Positions 5,772 through 63,941 of a DNA stretch of 64,000 nt are shown here, one piece after another. Source of the DNA: an uncultured delta proteobacterium (GTDB taxonomy: Bacteria > Desulfobacterota > Desulfobacteria > Desulfobacterales > SpSt-501); contig CAWHEZ010000043.1 of assembly GCA_963828345.1 (NCBI GenBank), positions 7,918 through 71,917 on the forward strand. The letters run 5' to 3'. Made by a program: the position numbers and the translations under genes. Each line of letters opens with the position of its first letter. The first letter of the stretch is position 1. The notes under the pieces were generated by a model that searched no databases, was not told the DNA's origin, and saw nothing but the letters and a program-made list of their open reading frames with translations.

Positions 5772-5863
5772 GGGGTGTGTTGGGTGCCGGGTGTTTGGTT
5801 TTCGTGATGAGCGGGGGCTTGCCTCTTTTCCCTTTGAACCCTTGACCCCTCGATCCCTTCAAC
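5772..5863. repeat. Composite word array: GGTGTTTGG-type words (5772-5802) plus CCCTTGA/CCCCTCGA-type words (5830-5863)
   Basis: Read directly: ggggtgtgttgggtgccgggtgtttggtttt ... ccctttgaacccttgacccctcgatcccttcaac. The two blocks are not complementary to each other. It fills the spacer between stop 5760 and the ATG at 5871. Confidence 0.7.
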
Positions 5864-5870
5864 ACGACCT

Positions 5871-6761
5871 ATGATCAGCGTATACCGAGACTGGTTTCTG
5901 GCCGCGCGGCCCTGGTCCTTCACCATGACCGCCATCTCCGTCAGCGTCGGCGGCGCCCTCGCCGCCCTGGACGGCGCGTTCTCCTGGCCGCTCTATCTCC
6001 TGACGCTCGTCGGCACGGTGCTGATGCACGCGGCCAGCAACCTCATCAACGACTACGACGACGTGCGGCACGGGGTGGACGACCCCAGGGTGCCGACCGC
6101 CCGCTACCGGCCGCACCCGCTGATGGAAGGCCGGCTCACCCCCCGGCAGGTCCGGTTCACGGCCTACGCGCTCTACCTCTTCGCTGCCGCCATCGGCCTC
6201 TTTCTCGCGGCCACGCGGGGGACGGCCGTGCTGTGGCTGGGGATCGTCGGCACGGCTGCGGGAATCAGCTACACGGCCCCCCCGCTGAACTACAAGTACA
6301 AGGCCCTCGGGGAGTTTTCGGTGTTCCTGATGTGGGGCCCCCTCATGGTCTGCGGGGCGTACTACGTGCAGGCGCAGGCCGCCAGCAGCGACGCCCTGCT
6401 CGTCAGCATCCCCTTCGGGGTGCTGGTCGCCCTGGTGCTGCTCGCCAACAACATCCGCGACATCGCCTACGACGACGCCAAGGGGATCCTGACGCTGCCG
6501 ATTCTGCTCGGCCGCCGCCGCGGCGTCGGCCTCTACCTCGCGCTCATCGTCACGGCCTACGCGGCCGTGGCCGCCATGTCCGTCTTCGGCCCGCTCGAGC
6601 CCTGGTCGCTGATCGTGCTGCTGTCCGCGCCGCTCGCCGTCAAGCTCCTGCGGCAGATGGCGACCGATGTCCCGCTCGACGCGGACGCGCAGACCGCGAA
6701 GCTCGACACCGTCTTCGGCCTGCTCCTGGTCGCCTCGCTCGTGGCGGGAGTGTGGATGTGA
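5871..6761 (+). CDS. UbiA-family prenyltransferase, MenA-like (1,4-dihydroxy-2-naphthoate prenyltransferase-like)
   Basis: Polytopic membrane protein with the Asp-rich motif NLINDYDDVRHGVDD and a second DIxxD region (NNIRDIAYDD). Confidence 0.8.
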   Translation: MISVYRDWFLAARPWSFTMTAISVSVGGALAALDGAFSWPLYLLTLVGTVLMHAASNLINDYDDVRHGVDDPRVPTARYRPHPLMEGRLTPRQVRFTAYALYLFAAAIGLFLAATRGTAVLWLGIVGTAAGISYTAPPLNYKYKALGEFSVFLMWGPLMVCGAYYVQAQAASSDALLVSIPFGVLVALVLLANNIRDIAYDDAKGILTLPILLGRRRGVGLYLALIVTAYAAVAAMSVFGPLEPWSLIVLLSAPLAVKLLRQMATDVPLDADAQTAKLDTVFGLLLVASLVAGVWM

Positions 6762-7891
6762 GCGCGGCCCGCCCGCGGCCGGCGGCCATCGTCGGCACGG
6801 TCCTGCTCGCCTCCGGACTCTGGTGGATGACCTTCGCGCAGGAGCTGGCCTCGTTCTGGGTCAAGATTTCGATATCCGCATCGCTGCTGGCCGCGATCTC
6901 CCTGCTCCTGCGGCCGCCTCCGCGCGGCAGCTTCCGATGGGACGCACCGGCCCTCGCCTGGGGCCTGGCGTCCGCCGTCGTTCTTTACGGAATTTTCTGG
7001 GCGGGCAAGGCGGTCTCGACTGCGGCCTTCCCCTTCGCGGGCGGGCAGATCGGCAGCATCTACCACAAGGGGGACGGAACACCGCTCTGGACGATCGCCG
7101 TCCTGCTCTTCTGCGTCACCGGCCCGAGCGAGGAAATCTACTGGCGCGGGTTCCTGCAGCAGGCGCTGATGGACCGACTCGGGCGCTGGGGGGGCTGGGC
7201 CGCCGCGACCGCCCTCTACGCCGGCGTCCACATCTGGTCCTTCAACTTCATGCTCGTGGGCGCCGCCGCGGTGGCCGGCGCGTTCTGGGGCGCACTGTAC
7301 GCGCGCTGCGGCCGCCTGGCGCCCGTGATCGTCTCGCACTCCATCTGGAGCACCGTCATCTTCGCCGTTTTCCCGATGCGATAAGCTGCAGATAACAGCT
7401 GGATAGCTGATCGCGGTGGGCGAACGGCGGATCGCCCCCTCCCGCCGGCCCCTCCCGCTACGGGGAGGGGAGATGAGCTGCACCGCGGCCTTGATCGCCT
7501 CCAAGATCGGGCCCTGCAGGGTGCGCCACTTCGGCCGGATCGCCCCGCCTTCGGTCCACTCGAATTCCACCGCATCGTATTTTTCCGGGACGACCCGCTC
7601 CCCCTGCTGGCCGTAGATGCTCTGCGGGTAATGCTCGACGTACATCATGCGGCCGGGCGGGATGGCGAACTCCCGGCTGACGCAGGTGGCGACGTGCCCG
7701 GCGCAGCTGCGCACCGACATGCGGCTGCCGGGCACGTCCGAGACGAGGACGATCGTCGGCCGCAGGTGCGCGGCCTTCGCGCCGGGGGGTTCCGTGGAAA
7801 GGTCGTAGATCCGCAGGCGGCAGCGGCCGCTCGCAAGCTTCAGCCGCCCCCCGAACCCCGGCCAATCGTAGATGCCGTCGTGAATCAGCAT
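6557..7891 (-). CDS. Hypothetical protein; only the first ~145 codons (7891 down to ~7460) look coding, and the annotated stop is probably not the real one
   Basis: The N-terminal part (MLIHDGIYDWPGFGGRLKL...EFEWTEGGAIRPKWRTLQGPILEAIKAAVQ) has normal composition. The rest is Arg/Gly/Asp-rich antisense read-through of the CPBP and menA-like genes. A strong hairpin CCCCTCCC/GGGAGGGG sits at ~7446-7467, with an out-of-frame TAG at 7458-7460. Confidence 0.4.
   Translation of the reverse strand: MLIHDGIYDWPGFGGRLKLASGRCRLRIYDLSTEPPGAKAAHLRPTIVLVSDVPGSRMSVRSCAGHVATCVSREFAIPPGRMMYVEHYPQSIYGQQGERVVPEKYDAVEFEWTEGGAIRPKWRTLQGPILEAIKAAVQLISPPRSGRGRREGAIRRSPTAISYPAVICSLSHRENGEDDGAPDGVRDDHGRQAAAARVQCAPERAGHRGGAHEHEVEGPDVDAGVEGGRGGPAPPAPESVHQRLLQEPAPVDFLARAGDAEEQDGDRPERCSVPLVVDAADLPAREGEGRSRDRLARPENSVKNDGGRQAPGEGRCVPSEAAARRRPQEQGDRGQQRCGYRNLDPERGQLLREGHPPESGGEQDRADDGRRPRAGRAHIHTPATSEATRSRPKTVSSFAVCASASSGTSVAICRRSLTASGADSSTISDQGSSGPKTDMAATAA
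6758..7384 (+). CDS. CPBP-family intramembrane glutamic endopeptidase (CAAX protease-like)
   Basis: Motifs SEEIYWRGF, GVHIWSF and SHSIWS in a multi-TM protein. A GTG at 6758 overlaps the menA-like stop by 4 nt. The longer ORF start at 6233 lies inside the upstream gene. Confidence 0.8.
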   Translation: MSAARPRPAAIVGTVLLASGLWWMTFAQELASFWVKISISASLLAAISLLLRPPPRGSFRWDAPALAWGLASAVVLYGIFWAGKAVSTAAFPFAGGQIGSIYHKGDGTPLWTIAVLLFCVTGPSEEIYWRGFLQQALMDRLGRWGGWAAATALYAGVHIWSFNFMLVGAAAVAGAFWGALYARCGRLAPVIVSHSIWSTVIFAVFPMR

Positions 7892-7993
7892 GACGCCCTT
7901 TTCAGAACATGGAGAGGAACTGTCTTTTCCCCCAATCCCCCTCTCACAAGAGAGGAGAAACTCGGGTTGAATCGGCTGAGCCCAAAGCCCGAG

Positions 7994-8078
7994 TTCAAGG
8001 CGCGCAAGCCGTGCGGCCCGAGGCGTACTCCGGTACGCCGCAGGGCCCGCGCGGCGCCGCGCAACGCCGAAATCGGGC
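7994..8078. repeat. Copy A of an ~85-nt structured repeat (long interrupted hairpin 8008-8055)
   Basis: About 80% identical by my hand alignment (68/85) to the reverse complement of 43619-43704. The hairpin is GCCGTGC-GGCCC-ga-GGCGTAC-tccg-GTACGCC-gca-GGGCC-c-GCGCGGC. It lies just downstream, in minus-strand sense, of the cbbO-like stop. Confidence 0.7.
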
Positions 8079-8093
8079 TTTCGGCCCAGCCGA

Positions 8094-10772
8094 TCATCGC
8101 GTCAGCGCGCTGTAGACGGTTAGCAGCCGCCCCGGCAGCTCCTGCACGTCCGCGATCACGTGGTGGCGCGCCTTGCCGTAGAGCGCATCCAACTGGGCGT
8201 CCGCCGGCAGGTTGACCGTCAGGGCGTGAAACCGGATGTGCCGCCCCTGCAGCTCCAGCAGGGCGCGGCGCGTGTCCGCAACGGCGTGGGCCCCCTTGTA
8301 GCCGGTGTCGTTGGGAAACCCGTCGCTCAGGATGACGAGCAGCCGCACCCGCGCGGGCACGGCGTCCAGCTCCCGGCCGGCATGGCGGATGGCGGCCCCC
8401 AGGCGGGTGTTGCGCTGCGGCCGCAGCGCCCCGAAGCGGCGCTTGACCTCCGGCGAGAGGGACTCGCCGAAGCCCTTGATCCCGAAGTAATCCACCCCCA
8501 GGCGCCCCGTCCCGGAGAAGGCTGCCACGGCGAACGAATCCCCCAGCACCGTCAACGCCTCGCACAGGACGACGATCGACTCCTTCTCGACCTCCAGAAC
8601 CGATGCGTCCGATCCCGGCACCGGGTGGGCGGTCGAACGGGAAACGTCCACGAGCAGGAGCACCGCGACGTCGCGCCGGTGCTTCACGCGCTTGATGAAC
8701 ACGCGGTCGGAGGGCGCATCGCCCAGGCGGCGGTCCACGGCCGATTCGATCAGCTCCCGGTAGTCGAACTCATCCCCGTCCACCCAGCGCCGCAACCGTT
8801 CCACCCCCTCCGGCCGCATCCGCTCGAAGGCCTGCCGCGTGTGCCCGACCAGCACGCGGCGGCGGCGCAGCACGTCCGTGTAAAACTCCTCGTGCCCCGC
8901 GGACGGCGACGGGTGCACGCGCAGCCGCACGTGCTCGGGGAGGTAATCCCCGAGACGGTCGTCCCATTCCGGGTAGCGGTAGACGAGACCCGCATCGTCA
9001 CGGGCCGCATCCGGCCCGGACCCATCGGCGTCGAGCCCGCCTCCCGCCCGTGCCAGCTCGGGGATCAGCGCAGCGTCCGAACGGCAGAGCTCCTGGAGGT
9101 CGCGGGCGGTGAGACGGCCGCCGCCGTCCCTCAGCCGTCGGCGGAGCTCGGAGCGGCGAGCCCGGATGCCATGACGCGACAGCGCTTCCGCGAGACGGCC
9201 CACGGCGCGCTCCCGGGCGGCGTCGCCGGCCGCGGCCGGGTTGGGCCAGGGGCGCCAGCCGAACGGCGGGGTGAGGCCGCCCGCGCGCGGAGTGGCGCAG
9301 GACGCGCAGTACCGGGCGGCGAGACCCCCGGCCGCCTCGACCGGACTGGCCGCCGTGACCTCGCGCTCAAATGCCGCCGCGATCTCGGCCTCCGGCTCCC
9401 CGCCCGGAGCGGCGCCGAGCCCCAAGGCCACGCGGGCGAAGAGCTCCGCGAGCGGGTCCGCGGCGGCCCCCTCCCGTTCCTCCCGGAACACGGCCTGCAG
9501 GAGCGGGTACCACCGCCGCACGAGGCCGGGATACCCGTCCGCAAGGCAGAGGCGAATGCGGCCGAGCTCGAAGATGGTGAAGGCGTCCGCGGCAAACACC
9601 GGGTCCGGGAAACCGGACAGGAACCGGTCGATGTCCGGCCGCGCGGGGCCGGGCGGCACGGCCGCGCGACCGCCCCATCCGGCCGGGCAGAAGTCCAGCG
9701 CCCGCTCCAGCTCGAAATCGAAGGTGCCGAATTCGTGCAAGCTCGCCTCCAACCGCACCAGCAGGCGGTAGAGCCGCTCGTTCTCGTCCCGGCGGTCGAA
9801 GCGGTCGATCTCGTCCGGGAGGTAGATGGCGTCGCCGTCGGAGCAGACCATCCGACCGCGGCCGAGGGACGCCGCCTGGGCCGCCGGCAGCTCCGACAGC
9901 GGCCGGACGACGAGACCGAGCCCGGTGCGGGCGTGCAGGTAGCGGCGCAGGCGGTCCTGCACCTGCCCGCAGCCGACGCTCACCTGCAGGAGCCTCAGCT
10001 GGTCCCGGGCGGTTTCCGATTCGAGTGCGAGCGCCCGGGCGGCGGCGTCCGGGTGGCGGCGGTGCACCGCGAGCGCGTGCTGCACGAACTGCCGCAGCGC
10101 GTCCTCCCGCAGCAGCCGCAGGCCCTTTGCCATCCCGGCCAGGAACGGCTCGATCAGATTGCGGTCGACGCGGGCGAGATCCAGGAGTTCGCCCAGTTGG
10201 AAGTGCCGCCGCCGAGGGTCGAGCCCCAGCAGCGCCTTCGGCAGGAGCGCGGCAAAATTGCGGCATTCGGGGTAGCCGGCGTCCGACGCGAAGACCACCC
10301 GCAGCAGGTCGAGGTAGACCGCCGCCGCGGCCCGGCCGCCCTCTGCCAGCACGGGCCCCAGCGCCAGCAGCGGCTCACGCAGGGCGTAGCTGCCCTTGCG
10401 GCCCATGGCGTCCCAGGCGCAGGTGAAGCGCTCCAGGCACTCGGCATCCCCGTGCGCCAGCACCGGCGGCAGACACTCGGCCATGATGCGACCCAGGGTG
10501 GGGCCCGTCCGCAGCGCCGCCCGCACCCGCTCCGTGTAACTTCGCCGGGACTCGGGGCCTGCCGACCCCACCAGCTCGGCGCAGCCTTGGCCGACCGCGC
10601 GGCCGAATGCCATCTCCTCCCCGAGCGCCCAGAGGGCCTGCTCGACCAGCCAGGACATCTCCTCGGCGGTCGGCGGTGCCGGCAACCGCGCCAGACGCGC
10701 GGCGACCGCCGCGGCCAGCTCGGGGTCGGCGGTTTTCAGGGTCTCGATGGCGTCGGCGAGGAGGGCGTTCAT
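8094..10772 (-). CDS. CbbO/NorD-like protein with a C-terminal von Willebrand factor A domain
   Basis: The C-terminal VWA has a MIDAS-like motif (LLLVDVSRST ... ILSDGFPND). It has a long helical N-terminal region and sits immediately downstream of a CbbQ/NorQ AAA+ gene. Confidence 0.85.
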   Translation of the reverse strand: MNALLADAIETLKTADPELAAAVAARLARLPAPPTAEEMSWLVEQALWALGEEMAFGRAVGQGCAELVGSAGPESRRSYTERVRAALRTGPTLGRIMAECLPPVLAHGDAECLERFTCAWDAMGRKGSYALREPLLALGPVLAEGGRAAAAVYLDLLRVVFASDAGYPECRNFAALLPKALLGLDPRRRHFQLGELLDLARVDRNLIEPFLAGMAKGLRLLREDALRQFVQHALAVHRRHPDAAARALALESETARDQLRLLQVSVGCGQVQDRLRRYLHARTGLGLVVRPLSELPAAQAASLGRGRMVCSDGDAIYLPDEIDRFDRRDENERLYRLLVRLEASLHEFGTFDFELERALDFCPAGWGGRAAVPPGPARPDIDRFLSGFPDPVFAADAFTIFELGRIRLCLADGYPGLVRRWYPLLQAVFREEREGAAADPLAELFARVALGLGAAPGGEPEAEIAAAFEREVTAASPVEAAGGLAARYCASCATPRAGGLTPPFGWRPWPNPAAAGDAARERAVGRLAEALSRHGIRARRSELRRRLRDGGGRLTARDLQELCRSDAALIPELARAGGGLDADGSGPDAARDDAGLVYRYPEWDDRLGDYLPEHVRLRVHPSPSAGHEEFYTDVLRRRRVLVGHTRQAFERMRPEGVERLRRWVDGDEFDYRELIESAVDRRLGDAPSDRVFIKRVKHRRDVAVLLLVDVSRSTAHPVPGSDASVLEVEKESIVVLCEALTVLGDSFAVAAFSGTGRLGVDYFGIKGFGESLSPEVKRRFGALRPQRNTRLGAAIRHAGRELDAVPARVRLLVILSDGFPNDTGYKGAHAVADTRRALLELQGRHIRFHALTVNLPADAQLDALYGKARHHVIADVQELPGRLLTVYSALTR

Positions 10773-10799
10773 CGTGTGAACGGAGCCGGGTGCACCGGA

Positions 10800-10909
10800 C
10801 AGGGTTCAGGGTCCAGGGTGAAGGTTACAGGGTTCCGGGGGCAGGGTTCAGGAGGAAGTGAATGCATCGGGGCGTCTCTCTTTCCTGAACTCTGAACCTG
10901 CTGAACCCT
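10800..10909. repeat. Word-hairpin, GGGTTCA family
   Basis: The left arm is cagggttcagggtccagggtgaaggttacagggttccgggggcagggttcagg. The right arm is cctgaactctgaacctgctgaaccct (reverse-complement words). The right arm ends 6 nt from the cbbQ stop. Confidence 0.75.
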
Positions 10910-10915
10910 ATCCGT

Positions 10916-11722: not shown

Positions 11723-11820
11723 TGCGCCTCCCCTCGCGTAATTTGCCATACCCCCCCGGATGTAATAAACTGGTGCATTGCCGCGGGGATCCACCCGGTT
11801 CACTTATATTACGGAGCCTT

Positions 11821-13818: not shown

Positions 13819-13910
13819 GGATCCTCGATGCTGGATTCTCGATGCTCGATTGCCGATGGAGGATCTGCCTGCCGCCCTTGTCGAGTATCCAGTATCAAGG
13901 ATCGAGCATC
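13819..13910. repeat. Word-hairpin, CTCGATG family, between convergent gene ends
   Basis: The left arm is ggatcctcgatgctggattctcgatgctcgattgccgatgg. The right arm is tcgagtatccagtatcaaggatcgagcatc; GATGCTCGAT and ATCGAGCATC are exact complements. The right arm touches the purN stop. Confidence 0.75.
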
Positions 13911-18596: not shown

Positions 18597-20114
18597 TCAA
18601 TAGGCTTTCGCGAACACCACCCGGTGCTGACCGGGACGGCCGCAGTAGAGGCAGCGGCCCGGGTCGCCCTCCTGCTCGAAGGGGATGCAGCGGATGGTGA
18701 CGGTCAGGTCTTCCTTGATCTTGGCCTCGCAGGCCGGGTCCCCGCACCAGCTGGATGCGGCAAAGCCGCCGTGGATCTCGGGCTTGTCCAGGTTGCGCGG
18801 CGTGAAGAAGTCGTAGAACTCGCCCTTGTCGTCGATCTGAACGGTGTTCTCGATGCGGAAGGCCTGCGCCCGGGCGAACATCCCGTTCTGGATGTCGTCC
18901 AGGATGCCGGTGACCTCGACCGTGAAGGCGTCGCGCTTCAGCGACACCCGCTCGTTGTGCGGCTTGTCGCGGCGCCCCAGGAACACCGCGTTGTCCTTGA
19001 TCTCGCGCGAGCCGATCTCGACCCGCAGCGGGATGCCTTTCTTGATCCACTCCCAGCCGCGGGCGCCGCCGATGTCGCGCGGGTCGACCTCGACCGTGAG
19101 CGGCCGGTCGTAGTACATCTTGTCCCGGAGCTCCCGGGCGAGGCTCTCGGTGTAGGCCATGACCGCCTGCCGCTCGTCGGGGTTGCGGGTGATGGGCAGC
19201 AGCACGATGTGCGCCGACGCCCCGCGGGGCGGCATGACGATCCCGTCGTCGTCCCCGTGGGTCATGATGACCCCGCCGATCAGGCGCGTGGACGCCCCCC
19301 AGGAGGTGGTCCAGGCGTACTCCTCCTTTTCCTCGGCCGACTGGAACTTGATCTGCGACGCCTTGGCGAAGTTCTGCCCGAGGAAATGGGAGGTCCCGGC
19401 CTGCAGCGCCTTGCGGTCCTGCATCATGGACTCGATGCACAGCGTGTCCACGGCCCCCGGGAAGCGCTCGGCCGCCGTCTTGCGGCCCCGGATGACCGGC
19501 ATGGCCAGGACCTCTTCGGACAGGCGCGCGTAGATGTCCAGCATCATCATCGTCCGCTCCCAGGCCTCCTCGCGCGTGGCATGAGCCGTGTGGCCCTCCT
19601 GCCAGAGGAACTCGCTCGTGCGCAGGAAAATCCGCGTGCGCATCTCCCAGCGCACGACGTTCCCCCACTGATTCAGCACGATCGGCAGGTCGCGGTAGCT
19701 GCTGATCCACTTCGAAAAAGAATCCGCGATAATGGTTTCGGAGGTGGGACGCACCACCAGGGGCTCGGCCAGCACACCGGCCGGCACGAGCTCGCCCCCC
19801 CGCTTCTCCAGCCGGTGGTGGGTCACCACGGCGCACTCCTTGGCGAAGCCTTCGACGTGCTCGGCCTCCTTCTGCATGAAGCTCAGCGGGATGAACAGCG
19901 GGAAATAGGCGTTCTTGACCCCGGTCGCCTTGAACATGCGATCCATGGAGTGCATGATGTTTTCCCAGAGGGCGTAGCCCCAGGGCTTGATGATCATGCA
20001 TCCCCGCACCGGGGACCGTTCGGCCATGTCGGACGCCTTGATGACCTGCTGGTACCACTCGGGGTAATCCTCGGCGCGGGTCGGGGAAATCGCGGATTTC
20101 GGTTTCTTGCTCAT
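18597..20114 (-). CDS. proS: Proline--tRNA ligase (archaeal/eukaryote-like short type)
   Basis: Class II aaRS motifs with the typical N-terminus ..EDYPEWYQQVIKASDMAE.SPVRGCMIIKPWGYALWE. The C-terminal Zn-binding-like domain ends in ..FAKAY. Confidence 0.95.
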   Translation of the reverse strand: MSKKPKSAISPTRAEDYPEWYQQVIKASDMAERSPVRGCMIIKPWGYALWENIMHSMDRMFKATGVKNAYFPLFIPLSFMQKEAEHVEGFAKECAVVTHHRLEKRGGELVPAGVLAEPLVVRPTSETIIADSFSKWISSYRDLPIVLNQWGNVVRWEMRTRIFLRTSEFLWQEGHTAHATREEAWERTMMMLDIYARLSEEVLAMPVIRGRKTAAERFPGAVDTLCIESMMQDRKALQAGTSHFLGQNFAKASQIKFQSAEEKEEYAWTTSWGASTRLIGGVIMTHGDDDGIVMPPRGASAHIVLLPITRNPDERQAVMAYTESLARELRDKMYYDRPLTVEVDPRDIGGARGWEWIKKGIPLRVEIGSREIKDNAVFLGRRDKPHNERVSLKRDAFTVEVTGILDDIQNGMFARAQAFRIENTVQIDDKGEFYDFFTPRNLDKPEIHGGFAASSWCGDPACEAKIKEDLTVTIRCIPFEQEGDPGRCLYCGRPGQHRVVFAKAY

Positions 20115-21277
20115 CGTCGGTGCATGTCCTCTGGAGTCTCAGTGTTTGGTTTTTGGTGTTTGGTGTTTGGGTCCTTCGGTCCCTTTAGTCCCTTTGGTCC
20201 CTTTGGTCCAAGTTGCTCTTCCATCGCCCGCACTTCCGCGAGGAGCACGTCCAGGAGCTGCCCCTCGGGGAACTTCTTCACCACCCGTCCCTTCCGGAAC
20301 AGGACGCCCACTCCGTCGCCGCCGGCGACCCCGATGTCGGCCTCGCGCGCCTCCCCCGGGCCGTTGACGACGCAGCCCATGATGGCGATGCGGATCGGGG
20401 CGACCGACCCCGCCAGGGCCTGCTCGACCTGCTCGACGATCCGGAACAGGTCGATGCGGGTGCGCCCGCAGGTCGGGCAGGCGATGATCTCCGGGCCGCG
20501 CTGCCGGATACCGAGCGCGCGCAGGATCTCGAACCCGGCCCGGACTTCCTCGACCGGGTCGCGGGTCAGCGACACGCGCAGGGTGTCGCCGATCCCCTCG
20601 GCCAGCAGCATGCCGATGCCGAGCGCCGACTTGACCAGCCCTGAAAACAGGGTGCCGGCCTCGGTCACCCCGAGGTGCAGCGGCAGGTCCGTCCGGGCGG
20701 ACAGCAGCCGGTAGGCCGCCACGGTGCGCGGGACATCGGATGCCTTGAGAGACACCTTGAGATCGTGGAAATCGAACGAGCGCAGCAGGTCGATGTGGCG
20801 CAGGGCGCTCTCGACCATGCCCTCGGGCGTGGCGCCATTATATTTTTTAAGGATGTCCTTTTCAAGCGACCCCGCGTTCACCCCGATGCGGATGGGGATG
20901 CCGCGCTCCCGGGCGCAGTCGGCGACCGCGCGCACCTTCCGGGCCCCGCCGATATTCCCCGGGTTGATCCGCAGACCGTCGGCGCCGGCTCGCGCGGCCG
21001 CGATGGCCAGGCGGTGGTCGAAGTGGATGTCGGCGAGGACCGGGATGCGCACCTGCGCCTTGATGCGGGCGAGGGCGCCGGCCGCATCGGCGTCCGGGAC
21101 CGCCACCCGGACGATGTCGCAACCGGCCGCCTCCAGGCGCCGGATCTGGGCGACCGTCGCGGCGACATCCGGGGTCGGCGTGTTGGTCATGGACTGGACC
21201 GTCACCGGGGCGCCCCCGCCGACGGCCACCCCGCCCACCGTGATCGCCCGCGTGGCCTTGCGCCGGATCGGGTTCAT
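20111..21277 (-). CDS. ispG: 4-hydroxy-3-methylbut-2-en-1-yl diphosphate synthase (flavodoxin), with a repeat-encoded C-terminal tail
   Basis: The N-terminus is MNPIRRKATRAITVGGVAVGGGAPVTVQSMTNT. The Cys ligands are present (ACPTCGR, GCVVNGPGE). I prefer the ATG at 21277. The last ~32 codons read through the word array 20142-20209, and the stop overlaps the proS ATG (ATGA). Confidence 0.9.
   Translation of the reverse strand: MNPIRRKATRAITVGGVAVGGGAPVTVQSMTNTPTPDVAATVAQIRRLEAAGCDIVRVAVPDADAAGALARIKAQVRIPVLADIHFDHRLAIAAARAGADGLRINPGNIGGARKVRAVADCARERGIPIRIGVNAGSLEKDILKKYNGATPEGMVESALRHIDLLRSFDFHDLKVSLKASDVPRTVAAYRLLSARTDLPLHLGVTEAGTLFSGLVKSALGIGMLLAEGIGDTLRVSLTRDPVEEVRAGFEILRALGIRQRGPEIIACPTCGRTRIDLFRIVEQVEQALAGSVAPIRIAIMGCVVNGPGEAREADIGVAGGDGVGVLFRKGRVVKKFPEGQLLDVLLAEVRAMEEQLGPKGPKGLKGPKDPNTKHQKPNTETPEDMHRR
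20142..20209. repeat. Composite word array (GTGTTTGG words plus GGTCCCTTT words) lying inside the ispG 3' end
   Basis: Read directly: gtgtttggtttttggtgtttggtgtttgg followed by gtccttcggtccctttagtccctttggtccctttggtcc. No complementary arm is nearby. Confidence 0.7.
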
Positions 21278-23531: not shown

Positions 23532-23551
23532 ATCGGTCCGATCGGACCGAT
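23532..23551. repeat. Perfect 20-nt palindrome, GATCGGACC family, between convergent gene ends
   Basis: ATCGGTCCGATCGGACCGAT equals its own reverse complement. It lies in the 40-nt gap between the mltF and MBL-hydrolase stops. Confidence 0.8.
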
Positions 23552-25273: not shown

Positions 25274-25395
25274 CAAATCCGAAATCCGAATACCGAAATT
25301 CGAAACAAATCCCAATATCGAACCCGGAAACCAATGCCGGGCGCACGACCTGAGGCTCCGCCTGTTTCGGATTTCGAATTTCGTATTTCGAATTT
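25274..25395. repeat. Word-hairpin, CGAAAT family (copy 1), inside the rib operon
   Basis: The left arm is caaatccgaaatccgaataccgaaattcgaaacaaa (25274-25309). The right arm is ctgtttcggatttcgaatttcgtatttcgaatttt (25362-25395) and abuts the ribBA stop codon. It is homologous to 63813-63941. Confidence 0.8.
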
Positions 25396-28517: not shown

Positions 28518-28601
28518 GTGTTAAGTTTTAAGTGTTACGTGTTAAGTGAAAATAGGCCGCCCATTGTTTCTACTTAAAACCTAAAACTTAACACTTAAAA
28601 C
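28518..28601. repeat. Word-hairpin, GTTAAGT family: AT-rich element between nrdR and ribD
   Basis: The left arm is gtgttaagttttaagtgttacgtgttaagtg. The right arm is cttaaaacctaaaacttaacacttaaaac. By my count 27 of 84 nt are G+C. The right arm ends 2 nt from the nrdR stop. Confidence 0.8.
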
Positions 28602-31433: not shown

Positions 31434-31519
31434 GGTTCAAGGTTCAGGGTTCAAGGTTCAGGGTTCAAAGGCTCGCGGTCGTGTCAACCGTGAACCCTTG
31501 AACCGTGAACCTGGAACCC
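31434..31519. repeat. Word-hairpin, GGTTCA family, between fabG and acpP
   Basis: The left arm is (GGTTCAA/GGTTCAG) x5 with an exact 7-nt period. The right arm is caaccgtgaacccttgaaccgtgaacctggaaccc and ends 7 nt from the fabG stop. Confidence 0.8.
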
Positions 31520-38196: not shown

Positions 38197-38227
38197 CATC
38201 CGACCGATCGGACCGATCGGTCGGATG
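38197..38227. repeat. 31-nt palindrome, GATCGGACC family, between convergent gene ends
   Basis: CATCCGACCGATCGG-A-CCGATCGGTCGGATG, with two perfect 15-nt arms. It lies in the 56-nt gap between the glnS and DUF218-protein stops. Confidence 0.8.
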
Positions 38228-38248
38228 GGTCGGATCGCAACGCCGCCC

Positions 38249-44750: not shown

Positions 44751-44813
44751 CCCACACACCAAACTTGCAATGCCAACTACCGAATACTAAACACCAAACA
44801 CCAAAAAAACACC
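44751..44813. repeat. One-armed CCAAACACC word array in the Memo-like / nifU divergent region
   Basis: Read directly: ccacacaccaaacttgcaatgccaactaccgaatactaaacaccaaacaccaaaaaaacacc. No complementary GT arm is nearby. Confidence 0.6.
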
Positions 44814-47067: not shown

Positions 47068-47105
47068 CCAACCGTTGAACCGTGAACCCCTGAACCGTTG
47101 AACCT
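47068..47105. repeat. One-armed GAACC word array (GGTTCA family, C-strand) next to the hypB stop
   Basis: ccaaccgttgaaccgtgaacccctgaaccgttgaacc closely resembles the right arm at 31485-31519. It ends 7 nt from the hypB stop. Confidence 0.65.
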
Positions 47106-48148: not shown

Positions 48149-48260
48149 GGTTGTGTTAGGTGTTTGGTGTTTCGTGTTTGGTATGAGTGTGTGGCGCTGG
48201 ACTGTGTTCGAGAGGTCCTGTTGCAGGTCCCAAACACTAAACACCAGACACTAAACACCA
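48149..48260. repeat. Word-hairpin, GGTGTTTGG/CCAAACACC family, between sucD and hypA
   Basis: The left arm is ggttgtgttaggtgtttggtgtttcgtgtttggta (48149-48183). The right arm is cccaaacactaaacaccagacactaaacacca (48229-48260) and ends 2 nt from the sucD stop. The left arm ends 9 nt from the hypA ATG. Confidence 0.8.
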
Positions 48261-50347: not shown

Positions 50348-50378
50348 GAGCCCCCCGGAGTCGCTTTGTCGTTGCATC

Positions 50379-50410
50379 GGTCCTATCGGTCCGATCGGAC
50401 CGATAGGACC
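50379..50410. repeat. Perfect 32-nt palindrome, GATCGGACC family, inside the operon
   Basis: GGTCCTATCGGTCCGATCGGACCGATAGGACC equals its own reverse complement. It lies between the 5S-subunit stop (50424) and the sucC start (50347). Confidence 0.8.
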
Positions 50411-50423
50411 TATCTTCCTTCTC

Positions 50424-55540: not shown

Positions 55541-55637
55541 CCAGGGGTCAAGGGGCCGAGGGGTCGAGGGGTCGGGTGAGCGGCGTGGCACGCGGTCACC
55601 TCCCCTTGAACCCTTGGCCCCTGGAATCCTTGACCCC
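55541..55637. repeat. Word-hairpin, GGGGTCRA / TYGACCCC family, between mcm and meaB
   Basis: The left arm is ccaggggtcaaggggccgaggggtcgaggggtcggg. The right arm is cctccccttgaacccttggcccctggaatccttgacccc and reaches the mcm stop codon. The left arm is four GGGG runs spaced by 4 nt. Confidence 0.8.
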
Positions 55638-57763: not shown

Positions 57764-57880
57764 GGGTTCAGTCTCCTTGATTTGGCGGTTCGATCTTCAC
57801 GCGTATCGAAAACCCGAGATTCGCCATCAGGTGGTTTGAAAACCAAGTATCGGGCCGTCAGCCAAGGCGCTTCGACCGCT

Positions 57881-57958
57881 GGCCCGTATGCCCGTCGACC
57901 CGTGCGCCCGCAGGAACTGGACGGGCCAACGGGCCGACGGGATCGGGATCACGGCCCG
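57881..57958. repeat. Word-hairpin, CCCGTNG / CNACGGG family, between epimerase and mcm
   Basis: The left arm is ggcccgtatgcccgtcgacccgtgcgcccg. The right arm is cgggccaacgggccgacgggatcgggatcacggcccg and ends 12 nt from the epimerase stop. Confidence 0.7.
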
Positions 57959-57970
57959 AGACGCCGGTTG

Positions 57971-58375
57971 TCAGCTCCGTTCGCACAGCTCCACCAGGAT
58001 GCCATTGGTCGCCTTGGGGTGGATGAAGGCGATCCGCGCGCCGCCCGCGCCCTTGCGCGGGGTCTGGTCGATCAGCTGGATGCCCTTGGCCTTGAGCTCC
58101 GCCAGCGCCTCGTCGAGGTCGGCGACCCGGAAGGCCACGTGCTGGATCCCTTCGCCTTTTTTTTCCAGGTACTTCGCGATGGGCCCGTCCGGGGCGGTGG
58201 ACTCGAGCAGCTCGACCTCGCTCTCGCCGACCGGCAGAAAGGCGGTCGTGACCTTCTGCTCCGCCACCGTTTCGGTCCCCTGCAACGACAACCCCAGCCC
58301 GTCCGTCCAGAAATTCTTGCCCGCGTCGATGCTGTTCACGGCAATTCCCAGGTGGTCGATCTTCAGGATTTTCAT
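57971..58375 (-). CDS. mce: Methylmalonyl-CoA epimerase (VOC/glyoxalase family)
   Basis: Starts MKILKIDHLGIAV at the ATG at 58375. ..GIQHVAFRV.D...A....G and FIHPK..NGILVEL are typical of the epimerase. 134 aa. Confidence 0.9.
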   Translation of the reverse strand: MKILKIDHLGIAVNSIDAGKNFWTDGLGLSLQGTETVAEQKVTTAFLPVGESEVELLESTAPDGPIAKYLEKKGEGIQHVAFRVADLDEALAELKAKGIQLIDQTPRKGAGGARIAFIHPKATNGILVELCERS

Positions 58376-58474
58376 GGGTCCCCCTTTGTGCATCCGCATG
58401 CATGGTATGGGTTGACCGCTCGCCCGCGGCCTTCGGTTCGTCCGGACGTGCTCATGCAAGTGGGGAAGCTTATA

Positions 58475-59756
<1,282 letters not shown>

Positions 59757-59757
59757 T

Positions 59758-60805
59758 TTACTCAATCAGCATCGCGTCCCCGTAACTGAAGAACCGGTAC
59801 CCGGCGCCGACCGCCTCACGGTAGGCCGCGAGCACCGGCTCGCGGCCGGCAAAGGCGGCCACCAGCATGATCAGGGTCGACCGGGGCAGGTGGAAGTTGG
59901 TGACCATGGCGTCCACGACCTTGAAGCGGTATCCGGGGTGGATGAAGAGCGCGCAGCTGCCGGCGCCCGCCGGGACGCGCCCGTCGGCGCCCGCGGCGTG
60001 TTCCAGGGTGCGCACGACCGTCGTGCCGACCGCCACGACCCGGCCGCCGGCGGCGCGCGCGGCCGCGATGCCCTCGGCCGTGGCCGCCGGGATCGCGAAG
60101 CGCTCGGCGTGCATGCGGTGCGCGCGGATGTCCGCCACCCGCACCGGGGCGAACGTGCCGTAGCCGACGTGCAAGGTGATCGGGAGCACCCGCACCCCGC
60201 GGCCCCGCAGGCGCGCGATCAGCTCGGGGGTGAAGTGCAGGCCGGCGGTCGGCGCGGCCACGGCCCCGCGCACGGCCGCGTAAACCGTCTGGTAGGTCGA
60301 GCGGTCGGCCGCCCGGTCCGGGCGCCGGATGTAGGGCGGCAGCGGCACGTGCCCGACGCGGTCGAGCACGGCATCGAAATCGCCGTCCGCCGCGAACTCG
60401 ACCCGGAAGCTCCCGCCCTCCGCCCGGACCACGGTCCCGGTCAGCCCGCCCTCGAAGCGGATGCGGCACCCCCACCCGCGTCGGCTTGGAGGATTTGATC
60501 AGGCACTCGCAGGCGAAGCCGCCCCCGGCCGAACGCGTCCCGCCGGCGTAGTCGATCAGGAAGACCTCGACGCGGCCGCCGGAGTCCTTGCGCCCGAGCA
60601 GCCGGGCCGGCACGACGGCCGTGTCGTTGACCACGAGCGCGTCCCCGGGCTCGAGCCGCTCCGCAAGCGCGTCGAACCGGTGGTGGGCCAGCGCGCCGGT
60701 GCGGCGGTCGAGCCGCATGAGCCGGGACCCGTCGCGGCGATCCGCCGGGGTCTGTGCGATCCGCTCGGGGGGAAGCTCGTAGTCGTAGTCGTCCAGGGAG
60801 AACAT
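59758..60805 (-). pseudogene. queA: S-adenosylmethionine:tRNA ribosyltransferase-isomerase, reading frame broken in a 5-nt homopolymer at 60469-60473
   Basis: The N-terminus MFSLDDYDYELPPERIAQTPA...CLIKSSKPTRVG is in one frame. The expected ..RIRFEGGLTGTVVRAEGGSFRVEF..VGHVPLPPYI..TAGLHFT..FFSYGDAMLIE is in the next frame. The junction is GTGGGGGTGCC in gene sense. Confidence 0.85.
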
Positions 60806-60821
60806 GGATGTCCCGCCGCGC

Positions 60822-61007
60822 TCAGCTGCGGCCCAGGGCGACGAACAGCAGCCCCAGCGCCATGACCGCGATGCCCACCTTGCGCAGCTGCTCGTCGGGC
60901 ATCTCCGCCATGCGGGCGACCCAGCGCTTCATGCGCTCCGGGAAGGCGAAGTACGGCAGGCCCTCCACGATCAGGACCATGCCGAGCACGCACAAAAAAT
61001 ATTTCAT
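60822..61007 (-). CDS. DUF2065-like small membrane protein
   Basis: 61 aa with two TM segments flanking EGLPYFAFPERMKRWV...LRKVG, the pattern I associate with DUF2065 (YjeT-like). Confidence 0.7.
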   Translation of the reverse strand: MKYFLCVLGMVLIVEGLPYFAFPERMKRWVARMAEMPDEQLRKVGIAVMALGLLFVALGRS

Positions 61008-61051
61008 GGCTGGTGTTGGGGTATTGGTGTTTGGTGTTCAGTTTCTGGTGT
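61008..61051. repeat. One-armed GGTGTTGG word array directly abutting the DUF2065 start codon
   Basis: Read directly: ggctggtgttggggtattggtgtttggtgttcagtttctggtgtc. In gene sense this is a CA-rich leader ending ..aacaccagcc-ATG, with no Shine-Dalgarno-like purine run. Confidence 0.7.
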
Positions 61052-61071
61052 CAAGTCAGTTGCATTCTCCC

Positions 61072-61122
61072 TGTGGGAGCGGCTTTCCAGCCGCGACGAT
61101 CAAGGCTGAAAGCCTCTCCCAC
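61072..61122. repeat. REP-like element: outer inverted repeat TGTGGGAG/CTCCCACA enclosing two small hairpins
   Basis: tgtgggag-CGGCTttccAGCCG-cgacgatca-AGGCTgaaAGCCT-ctcccaca. A second, partial copy with the same flanks (GTGGGAGCGGC...GCGACGAT) is at ~54430-54460. Confidence 0.65.
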
Positions 61123-61446
61123 AACGAACAGAGTTGCTTGCGGATAAATCCCCGCGCGCGGAGTGTGGCGCCATGCGCTTCAACCTCCGGCCAACGCCAT
61201 GTTCCGGCGATCGGACCTTCACCGCCGAAGACCACGAGGGACCCGTTTATACCGTCGGGGCCGGCCGGTTGTCAAAACGGGGTGCGCGGGCATAGATTGA
61301 CGCTGCACCGGACGGGCCTATATTGTACCGTCGGTCAACCCCCACTCTCCTCGCTGAAAGGTGACCCCATGCGCATGCGCGTCGTCGTTCACTACCTGGT
61401 GGCCACGGTCATCCTGACGGTCTACGGCGGTCAGGTCTGACCGTTC

Positions 61447-62907
61447 ATGGAAAGCCTGCCCCCCGTGAAGCTGGGGGCTCACATCCTGGCGGCCTTCGCG
61501 GCCGCGCTGCTCCTGCGGTACCCGCTTGAAAAACGATTTGTCGCCGACGCCGAGGAAATCGCTCAGCCGGCCCGCCAGTTCGCGCTCGACCAGGGCCTCG
61601 GGGCGGTTGCCGCCCTGGTCGCCGCCGGGCTGAACCACGTTCGCTTCGGGTTCCCCGCCGGCAGCGTCCTCAGCCTGATCCTCGGCGTCATGTTCTACAG
61701 CTTCTTCGTTGCCCTGGACACCGCGCTCGCCCGGGAGCACGCGATCATTCTGAAGGTGGCGCGCGAGGGCCGGGCGCTGCCCGTCCCGCACCGCCTCTTC
61801 CCGATGACGCGACGCTTCACGCTGGTGGCGGTCGCGACCGCGGTCTGCGTGTCGGCGGTCAACGTGCTGGTGATCGCGCGCGACATGAGCTGGCTCACCG
61901 GGATCGGCGACGACCCGGCCGCGCGCACGGAGGCCATCCTCTCGGTCACCGGCGAGGTGATCTTCGTCATGGTCGTCACGCTCGGCCTGGCCGCGAATCT
62001 CATCGTCTCCTACTCCCGCAACCTGAAGCTGCTCTTCCGCAACGAGACCAGCGTGCTCGAGCAGGTCACCCGCGGGGACCTCAGCCGCATGGTGCCGGTG
62101 GCCACGCGCGACGAGTTCGGGCTGATCGCCGGCCACACCAACACCATGATCGAGGGGCTGCGGCACCGCACCGAGCTCATCTCCGCGCTGAAGCTGGCCG
62201 AGGAGGTGCAGCGCACGCTGCTGCCCGCCGGGCCGCCGCAGGTCCCGGGGATCGACGTGGCCGGCGCGAGCATCTACTGCAACGAGACGGGCGGGGACTA
62301 CTACGACTACTTCGTGCTGCCCGGTGGGCGGCTGGGCATCGCGGTCGCGGACGTGGCCGGCCACGGCATCGACGCGGCGCTGTTCATGGCCTCGGCGCGC
62401 GCCTTCATCCACGCGGAAGCCCAGGGGTTCAGCAGCCCCTCCACGCTCGCCCGCGACGTGAACCGCTACGTGGCCCGGGACTGCGGCCCGACCGGCCGCT
62501 TCATGAGCATGTTCTTCCTCGAAATCGATCCGGCGCTGAAAACCATGCGCTGGGTGCGGGCCGGGCACGAACCGGCGCTGATGGTCGACCCGGGCGCAGG
62601 CGATTTTCGTGAGCTCGGCGGGGAGGGCATGGCGCTCGGGGTGGAAGACGAGGTGGCGTACCGCGACTACGCGCTGACGGGGTGGGGACCCGGGACCGTG
62701 GTCGTCATCGGCACGGACGGGATCACCGAGAGCCGCAGCCCGGCCGGGGAGTTCTTCGGGGCGGCGCGCGTGCGCGAGCTCGTCCGCGCGCACGCCCACC
62801 GGCCGGCCGAGCACATCCAGGCCGCCGTCATCCGCGCCGTCGAGGCGTTCCGGGGGGACGGCCCGCAGGAGGACGACATCACGCTGGTCGTCGTCAAGCT
62901 GGCCTGA
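61447..62907 (+). CDS. Membrane-bound HAMP domain / PP2C-type (SpoIIE/RsbU-like) serine phosphatase
   Basis: N-terminal TM segments, a HAMP-like linker (..VTRGDLSRMVPVATRDEFGLIAGHTNTMIEGL..), and a SpoIIE/PP2C core (GGDYYDYF..IAVADVAGHGIDAAL..GTDGITE). Confidence 0.85.
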   Translation: MESLPPVKLGAHILAAFAAALLLRYPLEKRFVADAEEIAQPARQFALDQGLGAVAALVAAGLNHVRFGFPAGSVLSLILGVMFYSFFVALDTALAREHAIILKVAREGRALPVPHRLFPMTRRFTLVAVATAVCVSAVNVLVIARDMSWLTGIGDDPAARTEAILSVTGEVIFVMVVTLGLAANLIVSYSRNLKLLFRNETSVLEQVTRGDLSRMVPVATRDEFGLIAGHTNTMIEGLRHRTELISALKLAEEVQRTLLPAGPPQVPGIDVAGASIYCNETGGDYYDYFVLPGGRLGIAVADVAGHGIDAALFMASARAFIHAEAQGFSSPSTLARDVNRYVARDCGPTGRFMSMFFLEIDPALKTMRWVRAGHEPALMVDPGAGDFRELGGEGMALGVEDEVAYRDYALTGWGPGTVVVIGTDGITESRSPAGEFFGAARVRELVRAHAHRPAEHIQAAVIRAVEAFRGDGPQEDDITLVVVKLA

Positions 62908-63055
62908 CCGGCTGTTGAAAAACGGCGTCTCGGTCCGTGATCCGGCGTTGCGCGGCCTTTGGCCATGCTCACATACTGCCGGGTATGCTGCGCCGGCCAA
63001 AGAGCCGCGCGCCTTGGCTGACGGCCCGATACGGGTCTTTCAACACCCGGCCACG

Positions 63056-63773
63056 TCATTCGGTTGTCTTGGGCGTCACGCCGGCGCGCGGCGACCGCCG
63101 CCCGCGCCAGGATCGACAGGGTGTCGAACACGGGCAGCGCCAGCTCCCCGGGCCGCAGCACGAGCGGCAGCTCGGTGCAGCCCGTGATGATCCCCTCGGC
63201 GCCGCGGGCGAGCGAGGCGCTCGCGCCACCGCCCGCACGTCGGCCGCGATCTCGGCCCGCGGCCGGGAGGCCCCCTTGATCGCGTAGATCGCCGCCATGA
63301 TCCGCTCCTGGTCGGCGGCCTCGGGCTCGAGCACCCGGATGCCGGCCCGGCCGCAGCTCGGCCGCGAAGCGGCCGGCGCGCAGGGTGCCGGTCGTCGCCA
63401 GCAGGCCGACCGTGCGGATCGCGGGGTGCCGCTCCCGGATGTAGTCCACGGTGGCCGCGAACATGGACAGGATCGGCAGGCCGGCCGCCTGCAGCTCGTC
63501 GATGAATGCGTGGGCCGAGACGCAGGGGATGACCACGAAGTCCGCCCCGGCAGCCTGCAGCGCGCGGAGGCCCGCCGTCATGGCGGGGACCGGCGACTCG
63601 CCGCCGGCCAGGATGGCCGCGGTGCGGTCGGGCACCTTGGGGTTGGAGTCGATGACCACCCGCAGGTGGTCCTGGTCGCGGGCGGCCGGGGTGGCCGCGA
63701 TGATCTTGCCGAAGAGATCCAGCGTGGCCTCGGGGCCCATGCCGCCTAAGATGCCGATGACCTTGTCTGCCAT
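63056..63773 (-). pseudogene. Aspartate/glutamate racemase family protein with two, probably three, frame shifts
   Basis: MADKVIGILGGMGPEAT..VIPCVSAH.. runs in one frame to ~63355. GRAGIRVLEPEAADQERIMAAIYAIKG..AEIAADVRAV is in a second frame. ASLARGAEGIITGCTELPLV..FDTLSILARAAV is back in the first frame. A plausible end ..GVTPKTTE-stop (63056) is again in the second frame. Confidence 0.7.
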
Positions 63774-63812
63774 TCAAGTCCCCTCAGTACAAGCTATCGC
63801 CTGGGAATATGG

Positions 63813-63941
63813 CAATCGAAATCCGAAATTCGAATATCGAAATTCGAAACAAATTCGAACACCAAATGACTCAAACCCGGTTTTTAAAATTATAGAATTT
63901 CAATTGGGAGCTTGTTTCGGATTTCGAATTCGTGCTTCGAA
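63813..63941. repeat. Word-hairpin, CGAAAT family (copy 2)
   Basis: The left arm is caatcgaaatccgaaattcgaatatcgaaattcgaaacaaa. The right arm is cttgtttcggatttcgaattcgtgcttcgaa and ends 2 nt from the stop of the partial ABC ATPase gene. It is homologous to 25274-25395. Confidence 0.8.

Follow-up and report, generated by a model that had tools for sequence, protein, structure and literature searches.

The stretch of DNA analysed here, called the window throughout, comprises 64,000 nucleotides (nt) of contig CAWHEZ010000043.1 from an uncultured member of the Desulfobacterales (assembly GCA_963828345.1), and our subject is a set of tandemly repeated short words, often arranged as inverted arms, in the spacers between its genes. 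The window has 67% G+C and its genes are densely packed. The gene names assigned in a preliminary description of this sequence (CbbQ-like, RibBA, NrdR, FabG, SucD, 5S subunit, Mcm, an epimerase, QueA and an ABC ATPase) agree with Pfam or with the annotation of conspecific contigs. An Rfam search of the whole window at gathering thresholds returned only a tRNA; it detected no rRNA, and no covariance model matched any of the word-hairpins described below. Exact copies of the window's Mcm are present on two JGI metagenome contigs, L081 and L082, and an 848-kb ENA contig, L083, encodes a MeaB protein 99% identical to that of the window. These three contigs are 98–99% identical to the window in DNA. 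The closest named relatives among the matches listed are Desulfobacterales metagenome-assembled genomes (MAGs), whose MeaB is about 82% and whose Mcm is 81% identical. The syntenic relatives used for comparison were L087 (MeaB 90% identical) and L084, L085 and L086 (81% identical, 62% G+C).

Tandem arrays of short words had been described at 18 loci of the window. Tandem Repeats Finder (TRF) detected an array of period 7–9 at all 18, and the words given for them are visible in the sequence. There are 16 merged arrays with a period of 7–8 and a score of at least 40 in the window, whereas 20 dinucleotide shuffles gave 0.05 on average and never more than 1; for arrays of period 7–9 the corresponding values are 20 and 0.15. 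Seventeen of these 20 arrays lie outside called genes in a window of which only 14% is non-coding (binomial p = 3e-12). The initial estimate that about half of the spacers are built in this way was too high because arrays fill about a third and true hairpins about a quarter of them (about 35% and 23%, respectively, of 52 gaps of at least 35 nt from a crude gene call). An inverted partner is present for 15 of 30 arrays. At least eight unrelated consensus words occur within the 64 kb, and more than 120 distinct words were found within one set of genomes. The window contains 23 inverted arrays per 100 kb, whereas the majority of the 80 loci of other bacteria that served as controls contain none. 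The exceptions among the controls are a Desulfobacterales MAG (L001), which at only 50% G+C has the words GGTGTTTGG, GGTTCAGG and GTTTGCCC in common with the window, as well as Spirosoma, Desulfuromonas and one deltaproteobacterial MAG, all with other words.

The potential of the 18 loci to form hairpins was examined by comparing RNAfold energies with those of dinucleotide shuffles. Twelve loci fold significantly beyond the shuffles, with z-scores from −2.8 to −9.5. Two of them are built from GGTTCAR words, one at 10800–10909, 6 nt past the stop codon of the cbbQ-like gene (TRF periods 7 and 14; z = −3.1 in sense and −3.0 in antisense), and the other at 31434–31519 in the fabG–acpP spacer, the flanks of which were confirmed by Pfam (TRF score 70; z = −9.5). 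The latter reads GGTTCAAGGTTCAGGGTTCAAGG...CCGTGAACCCTTGAACCGTGAACC. Three more, all detected by TRF, lie between convergent genes: a hairpin of CTCGATG/GGATNCTCGAT words at 13819–13910 (z = −3.0), whose word family is multi-copy in L086, a palindrome of ATCGGWCCG words without a loop at 23532–23551 (TRF period 9; z = −2.8), and a palindrome of GATCGGWCC words at 38197–38237 (z = −5.2). The GTTAAGT/GTTTTAAGT hairpin at 28518–28601 (found by TRF; z = −4.4) begins 2 nt past the nrdR stop, with ribD 10 nt further on. At 48149–48260, a GGTGTTTGG / CCAAACACC hairpin (z = −4.0) starts 2 nt past the sucD stop and its 3′ arm ends 9 nt short of the hypA ATG. A perfect 32-nt palindrome of GGTCCNATC words at 50379–50410 (z = −8.5) occupies the spacer between the 5S subunit gene and sucC. 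The GGGGTCRA hairpin at 55541–55637 (z = −4.4) overlaps the mcm stop codon, and its arm ends 12 nt short of meaB. Two foldbacks on the minus strand belong to one family of CGAATTY/CGAAATY words: that at 25274–25395 immediately follows the ribBA stop and contains no open reading frame (ORF) (z = −3.4), and the second copy in the window, at 63813–63941, lies 2 nt past the stop of the ABC ATPase gene (z = −3.7). This is the family that we associate below with genes of Pfam family PF05635. The last of the 12 strong folds, a CCCGT/ACGGG word-hairpin at 57881–57958 (minus strand), forms the interior of a separate element, E2, which is treated later. In the ten cases within operons for which the first arm had been placed 0–13 nt past the upstream stop, all ten gaps were measured and found correct. 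The distance from the end of the 3′ arm to the next start codon is 1–117 nt, and 1–62 nt in nine of the ten.

The long imperfect hairpins of the preliminary description thus stand at 12 of the 18 loci, and the other six carry one-armed or chimeric arrays. At 5772–5863 (plus strand) a GGTGTTTGG-type array on the 5′ side is joined to a CCCTTGA-type array on the 3′ side with no significant hairpin (z = +0.5), and at 59592–59756 (minus strand), past the queA stop, three arrays follow one another (four copies of GGGGTCRAG, three of GGGCAAAC, then CAAAC/AAACACC), again with no hairpin (z = +0.3). A one-armed AAACACC array at 44751–44813 in the divergent Memo/NifU spacer (z = +0.5) is kept in L083. 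The one-armed GGTTCA array at 47068–47105 (minus strand; found by TRF; z = −2.2) lies 7 nt past the hypB stop and adjoins an ordinary GC hairpin. A one-armed CCAAACACC-type array at 61008–61051 (minus strand; z = −0.6) touches the ATG of a gene for a DUF2065 protein. The sixth locus, at 20142–20209 (minus strand; z = −1.4), consists of adjacent arrays of four GGACCAAAG and four CCAAACA words inside the 3′ end of the ispG frame. The GcpE Pfam domain of IspG stops at residue 418 of 456, and the array encodes the C-terminal tail GPKGPKGLKGPKDPNTKHQKPNT (…GPKGPKGLKGPKDPNTKHQKPNTETPEDMHRR); the frame (20111–20224, minus strand) overlaps the start of proS by 4 nt. It seems that the insertion of a repeat lengthened this gene of a conserved enzyme. 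We also observed that C/A-rich (CCAAACA)n arrays lie directly 5′ of an ATG at 61008–61051 and 48149–48182, both on the minus strand. The two genes concerned, the DUF2065 gene and hypA, have no visible Shine-Dalgarno sequence, and the same arrangement occurs on viral contigs L224, L227, L234 and L235. Such arrays may provide an unstructured leader that promotes translation.

The word-hairpins are dispersed repeat families and not structures grown in place. The 3′ arms of the non-orthologous loci 25274 and 63813 match at 34 of 36 positions in register but at only 21 of 26 with an offset of one word; the loops show no relationship. Locus 25274 next to ribBA matches the non-orthologous ABC locus of L086 at 44 of 48 and 32 of 37 positions, while locus 63813 matches its own L086 orthologue at 60 of 72, loop included. 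L086 further contains three copies of one element of about 80 nt, including the loop, at 84–91% identity; one of the copies is inverted, and another contributes, through its 5′ arm, the stop of the gene upstream. These in-register arms and whole copies, together with the exchange of families at orthologous spacers described next, are best accommodated by what the preliminary description had offered as its secondary option, a dispersed DNA element akin to repetitive extragenic palindromic (REP) sequences and bacterial interspersed mosaic elements (BIMEs) with an internal tandem structure. At 2290–2375 of L086, the upstream PALP-domain gene ends within the 5′ arm of an element of the GATACTCGAT family, from which it takes its final codons and its TAA stop (…GCC GAT ACT CGA TAA).

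A comparison of orthologous spacers among relatives, which had been suggested earlier, revealed different word families at orthologous sites. Gene order in L084 and L086 is as in the window and the genes are 88–91% identical in DNA, yet alignment is lost at nearly every spacer. The spacer past the ABC gene holds CGAAATY words in the window and L086 and GGGGTCAAG in L084. That between sucD and hypA holds GGTGTTTGG in the window and L084 and a GGTCCTATAGGACC palindrome in L086. In the mcm–meaB spacer, the window and L087 have GGGGTCRA, L086 has GCTTGARG and L084 has no array; the window's hairpin at this site is kept in L081–L083, and the arms are about 80–85% identical in L087.

Reshaping is also evident within individual copies. 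Among more than 100 copies of the CGAATTY/CGAAATY family, the 5′ arms vary by gain, loss and swap of whole words. The palindrome at locus 50379 (window 50375–50414, L083 14852–14891) shows four clustered differences in about 36 nt, two of them compensatory, against a divergence of about 1.2% elsewhere, and the window and L083 versions are each perfect over 32 nt. This looks more like a templated event (correction or conversion of one arm by the other) than like point mutations that arose independently. Loci 59592 and 63813 are far more diverged from L083 than their flanks are. Locus 59592 evolves fast: it differs by numerous substitutions and indels although its flanks are 98% identical.

The window's CGAAATY family connects these repeats to a protein-coding gene. 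When 25 nt of the CGAATTY/CGAAATY 3′ arm were used as the query in a scan of metagenomes, the arm was found on at least 120 contigs of 35–62% G+C, nearly all with the same long foldback of the plan 5′ AAATTCGAAGCACGAAATCCGAAATMCGAAACAAATYCAAAATCCAAATGWYCAAAAC – loop – GTTTTGRWCATTTGAATTTTGG..TTTGTTTCGAATTTCGATATTCGRATTTCGGATTT 3′. On about ten of these contigs the loop is exactly occupied by an ORF of 121 amino acids whose ATG lies within the inner 5′ arm and whose stop codon touches the inner 3′ arm. The product belongs to PF05635, the '23S rRNA-intervening sequence protein' family (E = 1e-12), and to TIGR02436, 'four helix bundle protein' (E = 1e-18), and it matches PDB entry 2RLD. ORF-less copies outnumber gene-bearing copies in the CGAAATY family by about ten to one. 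The PF05635/S23p family is regarded as a homologue of Avd, a protein of diversity-generating retroelements (PMC10053308).

The same association was observed with other words and in other bacteria. Annotated four-helix-bundle genes on plasmids of Cyanobacteriota, Bacteroidota, Chloroflexota and Spirochaetota have inverted arrays of 7–9-nt words on both sides in ten of ten cases, and in every case the array upstream of the gene is reverse-complementary to that downstream; among the words are TTCAAAA, AAGTAAA, ATGAATT, GTCGGAG, CAGTGAC and GAAAGNG. In 50 kb of a Nostoc plasmid the four-helix-bundle gene is the sole bracketed one among 37 coding sequences, with a score of 31 compared to 10.5 for the next, and on a Bernardetia plasmid only insertion sequence (IS) transposases outscore it. 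Among IMG/VR contigs, sampled independently, 16 of 23 homologues are bracketed, compared to 3 of 104 control ORFs of the same loci (Fisher p = 2e-12). Word arrays also adjoin a distant homologue in L174 and a homologue in an unrelated control locus, L061. Only one paper, on Coxiella's intervening sequence (IVS) (PMC4990558), emerged when the searchable literature was examined for a stated tie between four-helix-bundle genes and heptamer arrays.

Some of the plasmids deserve separate description. In L209, L211, L212, L213 and L215, four-helix-bundle cassettes lie in operon spacers, the host sites being cas2–cas1, the position 5′ of cas1, an adaptor–permease pair of the resistance-nodulation-division (RND) type, and helicase–methylase pairs of restriction-like loci. 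A Treponema saccharophilum plasmid (L216) has about 40 GAAAGNG heptamers at 164–491, 5′ of the four-helix-bundle gene, and a complementary CCGCTCT array both immediately before the gene and after it. A 50-kb region of a Nostoc flagelliforme plasmid (L218) carries 25 heptamer arrays, several of them as ORF-less inverted pairs (CAGAATT/ATTCTGA, GGGTGTAA/ACCCCTAC and GGGGAAA/CTTTCCC). From these pairs it follows that the classic short tandemly repeated repetitive (STRR) arrays of cyanobacteria often share the word-hairpin architecture.

On this evidence we propose, as a reading that we regard as somewhat probable, that the word-hairpins are small, non-coding, selfish foldback repeats of a widespread tandem-heptamer kind whose full form carries a PF05635/TIGR02436 gene. 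Each word family would be a dispersed lineage of copies. Its arms would consist of a family-specific series of 7–9-nt word variants, purine- and G-rich in the 5′ arm and complementary in the 3′ arm, with a loop that is free to vary. Copies would reach new spacers and be replaced rapidly, would be reshaped locally by slippage of whole words and by occasional templated correction between arms, and would build up just past stop codons, where insertions may be tolerated. In the full form the loop would hold a single gene for the four-helix-bundle protein (S23p, Avd-like), and the copies in the window would be ORF-less derivatives comparable to MITEs (miniature transposable elements with inverted repeats). 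Transcribed within operon mRNAs, they would form long imperfect stems. By analogy with rRNA intervening sequences and REP elements, such stems are likely substrates of RNase III or, after processing, protective 3′ stem-loops.

The orientation of the elements is consistent with part of this proposal. Of 41 informative pairs, 33 have a purine-rich 5′ arm (33 versus 8), and in 31 of 39 that arm has more G than C. Since an inverted repeat reads alike on both strands, this bias is a fixed property of the element and does not reflect orientation to transcription. A different feature, the G-rich arm coming first in transcript sense, was discarded as a signal because it is trivially true on both strands of an inverted repeat. 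When the CGAATTY/CGAAATY elements were oriented by their asymmetric arms, they were found behind a co-directional upstream gene by 34 to 8; nine lie in convergent spacers and one in a divergent spacer. For the 3′-end or intercistronic RNA role favored in the preliminary description, this sense bias past stop codons is supportive, but the two strands fold alike and the arms do not co-vary. An intrinsic (Rho-independent) terminator was rejected, as no T-run (U-tract in the transcript) follows the 3′ arms of the window's hairpins; in L026 a canonical terminator lies downstream of a word-hairpin as a distinct structure. A CRISPR array was likewise rejected, in keeping with the initial assessment, since the words are contiguous, with no unique spacers between them, and the arms are inverted.

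A number of observations weigh against the proposed reading. Six of the 18 loci (5772, 20142, 44751, 47068, 59592 and 61008) are one-armed arrays or chimeras with z-scores of +0.5 to −2.2. Sense and antisense folding, compared as a test for RNA selection supported by G·U pairs, were about equal, with differences of either sign. The duplex energies of cognate arms in 51 CGAATTY/CGAAATY elements were no better than those of non-cognate arms (p = 0.85), and there was no co-variation; this test is weak because periodic arms pair in any register. Nothing in either the folding or the arm co-variation shows selection on an RNA stem. There is no PF05635 gene in the window or in the approximately 100 kb of close relatives that were read, so the gene link of families other than CGAAATY is suggested by shared architecture only. 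Scans of viral contigs for arrays of GGTGTTTGG and GGGGTCRAG found arrays and some hairpins with no adjoining PF05635 ORF. The gene could also be a passenger that entered the loops of existing hairpins instead of the ancestor of the ORF-less copies. As the preliminary description had noted, the window encodes no transposase and no target-site duplications were observed; no direct repeats flank the inspected copies, and neither a transposase nor a pair of empty and filled sites was found. For these reasons we infer movement, and any mechanism of it, solely from the distribution of copies.

Several other explanations were weighed against the proposal of dispersed foldbacks with a gene-bearing full form. 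The hairpins may instead be RNA devices of the host that evolved in place, shaped by selection for stabilising or processing mRNA or for coupling translation, and grown by word slippage with no mobility. The tight spacing of the arms past stop codons and before the next start in the operon cases fits such devices, as do the strong folding z-scores, the retention of hairpins at orthologous sites (mcm–meaB in L087, sucD–hypA in L084) and the whole-word insertions and deletions by which arms differ. We consider this explanation unlikely because in-register identical arms recur at unrelated loci and in genomes of 35–62% G+C, copies recur with their loops, orthologous spacers carry different families and one-armed arrays are also found in promoter regions and within an ORF. 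The equal folding of sense and antisense strands and the lack of co-variation between cognate arms argue in the same direction. The latter result is more readily reconciled with arrays of DNA binding sites, either for a nucleoid or global regulator, as proposed in Geobacter metallireducens, or for the four-helix-bundle protein, with the hairpin as a by-product of sites on opposite strands. Non-complementary arm positions are indeed conserved in more than 100 copies, there is one word per 7–9 bp, and arrays of this architecture in G. metallireducens have been suggested to bind integration host factor (IHF) or HU (PMC2700814). Yet more than 120 words in one set of genomes are far too many for a few regulators, and the elements favor the 3′ ends of genes and avoid divergent promoter regions, which makes this explanation quite improbable.

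That the copies are extragenic, lie past stop codons, form hairpins and are multi-copy would also be expected of a system of REP sequences and their inverted doublets (REPINs) mobilised in trans by a REP-associated tyrosine transposase (RAYT; an IS200/IS605-like Y1 transposase) from another part of the genome, and IS elements do target such sites in G. metallireducens (PMC2700814). We regard this as very unlikely: a REP is an imperfect palindrome of 20–40 nt with a conserved head, whereas the window's arms are tandem words with at least eight unrelated consensus words; a survey of ORFs and Pfam domains found no RAYT gene in the window; and the gene inside such elements is PF05635 and not a Y1 transposase. 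G-quadruplex or i-motif elements, the interpretation given to the GGGAATC repeats of Xanthomonas, were rejected as extremely improbable. The GGGGTCRA arrays do have at least four G-tracts and related repeats form G-quadruplexes in vitro (PMC4692102), but most word families, including CGAAATY, GTTAAGT, CTCGATG, GGTTCAR and GGTGTTTGG, lack runs of three Gs.

A bolder version of the preferred reading, which we hold to be doubtful although worth stating, would extend it to all tandem-heptamer foldbacks. Word-hairpins, STRR arrays, GGGAATC pairs and the Geobacter class 1–3 sites would all be cis-acting arms or ORF-less derivatives of one ancient, widespread and selfish cassette with PF05635 as its sole gene. 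Its oligomeric protein would read its own words, one subunit per word, and each family would have its own paralogue. The protein would drive spread together with RNase III, acting on the transcribed stem, and perhaps with a reverse transcriptase of the kind found in diversity-generating retroelements, and the IVSs of 23S rRNA would be copies that landed in rRNA.

The window also contains a second type of foldback, E2, which is not built from words. E2 elements are about 135–245 nt long, have minimum free energies (MFEs) of −78 to −128 kcal/mol and lie directly past stop codons. The first copy in the window is at 57835–57970 (minus strand; MFE −78 kcal/mol), with an interior that in this strain is the CCCGT/ACGGG word-hairpin at 57881–57958, and the second copy, at 62908–63050 (plus strand), has the same end motif. 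Copies in relatives are at L081 225–470, L082 1–215 and L083 7229–7446. The ends are conserved (AACGGCGTCTCGGnCCGTGATCC ... GCGCCTTGGCTGACGGCCCGATAC); their motif occurs twice in the window and in none of 100 shuffles. The interior is replaced in L081, L082 and L083 even though these contigs are otherwise nearly identical to the window. An Rfam search of 62850–63100 by E-value gave no match to E2. With regard to neighbouring genes, queA (59758–60805, minus strand) is represented by two overlapping frames (ORFs 59816–60805 and 59758–60432) in a 1048-nt span that is not a multiple of 3, whereas queA in the conspecific L083 is a single ORF of 348 amino acids. The split is due either to a frameshift in the window or to an erroneous indel in one or other assembly.

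To our knowledge, tandem heptamers have been described between bacterial genes from about 1990 onwards with no accepted origin or function, and the PF05635/TIGR02436 proteins are widespread with no known function. The observation, prompted by this window, that tandem-word foldbacks and PF05635 genes go together is the one most worth following up. One word family of the window, CGAAATY, is the ORF-less form of a PF05635 cassette. If the proposed reading is true, both the origin and role of the heptamer arrays and the function of PF05635 become testable, and it would explain why operon spacers turn over far more quickly than genes in some lineages. Since the elements fill about a third of the spacers, lengthen the frame of at least one gene, ispG, and lie against start codons, they probably affect expression.

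The preliminary description had not recognised the word-hairpins as a described class of element, which was too strong a statement, as the same architecture has been reported in Xanthomonas (PMC4692102), in G. metallireducens (PMC2700814) and in the stem of the Coxiella 23S IVS (PMC4990558). Because the architecture has already been reported piecemeal, the elements of the window are new words, in a new lineage, of a known but uncharacterised kind of repeat. The 23S rRNA IVS of Coxiella has an inverted-repeat stem with three or four tandem GACAGAT heptamers, variable in number, ahead of the start of S23p, whose ORF lies in the loop; the IVS is cut out by RNase III, which cleaves at the first repeat (PMC4990558). 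ORF-containing IVSs of 23S rRNA occur in Coxiella, Leptospira, Brucella and Haemophilus (PMC4990558). They resemble the full-length CGAAATY elements in their long stem, the heptamers of the 5′ arm and the PF05635/S23p ORF in the loop that starts at the inner 5′ arm, and in the IVS the heptamer copy number varies by strain and the element lies in sense within the host transcript. The copies in the window share with the IVS the terminal inverted repeats in a long stem and the heptamer repeats in an arm. Unlike the IVS, they lie in mRNA spacers between protein genes and not in helix 25 or 45 of 23S rRNA, they are ORF-less, and there are many families per genome.

In G. metallireducens, 'global regulator binding sites' of classes 1–3 were interpreted as targets of IHF or HU (Aklujkar et al. 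2009, PMC2700814). As in the window, three to five tandem words of 7–9 nt are paired, at a distance that varies, with the same array read on the other strand, and there are several word classes per genome. These sites are intergenic (for example proB–proA) and missing from a sister species (PMC2700814). Their words (GTTGCTYN, TCTCCGTS and MTYCTGA) differ from those of the window, and no tie to PF05635 or to RNA was drawn there. The GGGAATC heptamers of Xanthomonas, about 185 per genome with 70–75 convergent plus/minus pairs, were read as G-quadruplexes (Rehm et al. 2015, PMC4692102). One word dominates each Xanthomonas genome, in contrast to the at least eight families in 64 kb here. TAACTGA direct repeats have been described in Beggiatoaceae and cyanobacteria (PMC4679880). 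The window arrays share with the GGGAATC pairs, the class 1–3 sites and STRR at least three tandem words of 7–9 nt in non-coding DNA, and the opposite-strand partner array at a short variable distance that is typical of the GGGAATC pairs and classes 1–3 is present at 12 of the 18 window loci. STRR heptamers are known from heterocystous cyanobacteria.

REP, BIME and REPIN elements are abundant extragenic hairpins located past stop codons and between cistrons and grouped in families, with quick turnover and effects on mRNA stability. They are single imperfect palindromes without tandem words and their gene is a Y1 transposase, whereas elements of the window type consist of tandem words and their gene encodes a four-helix-bundle protein. 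The window elements are like MITEs in being short and non-coding, with conserved inverted ends, a variable interior and multiple copies; they differ from MITEs in lacking observed target-site duplications and in that the gene-bearing form has no recognisable transposase, the sole gene inside being PF05635. Eukaryotic Foldback (FB) transposons have long inverted arms of short tandem subrepeats, the number of which differs by copy and by arm, and a variable, sometimes coding centre. As FB transposons are eukaryotic and kilobase-sized, their likeness to the word-hairpins is one of architecture only.

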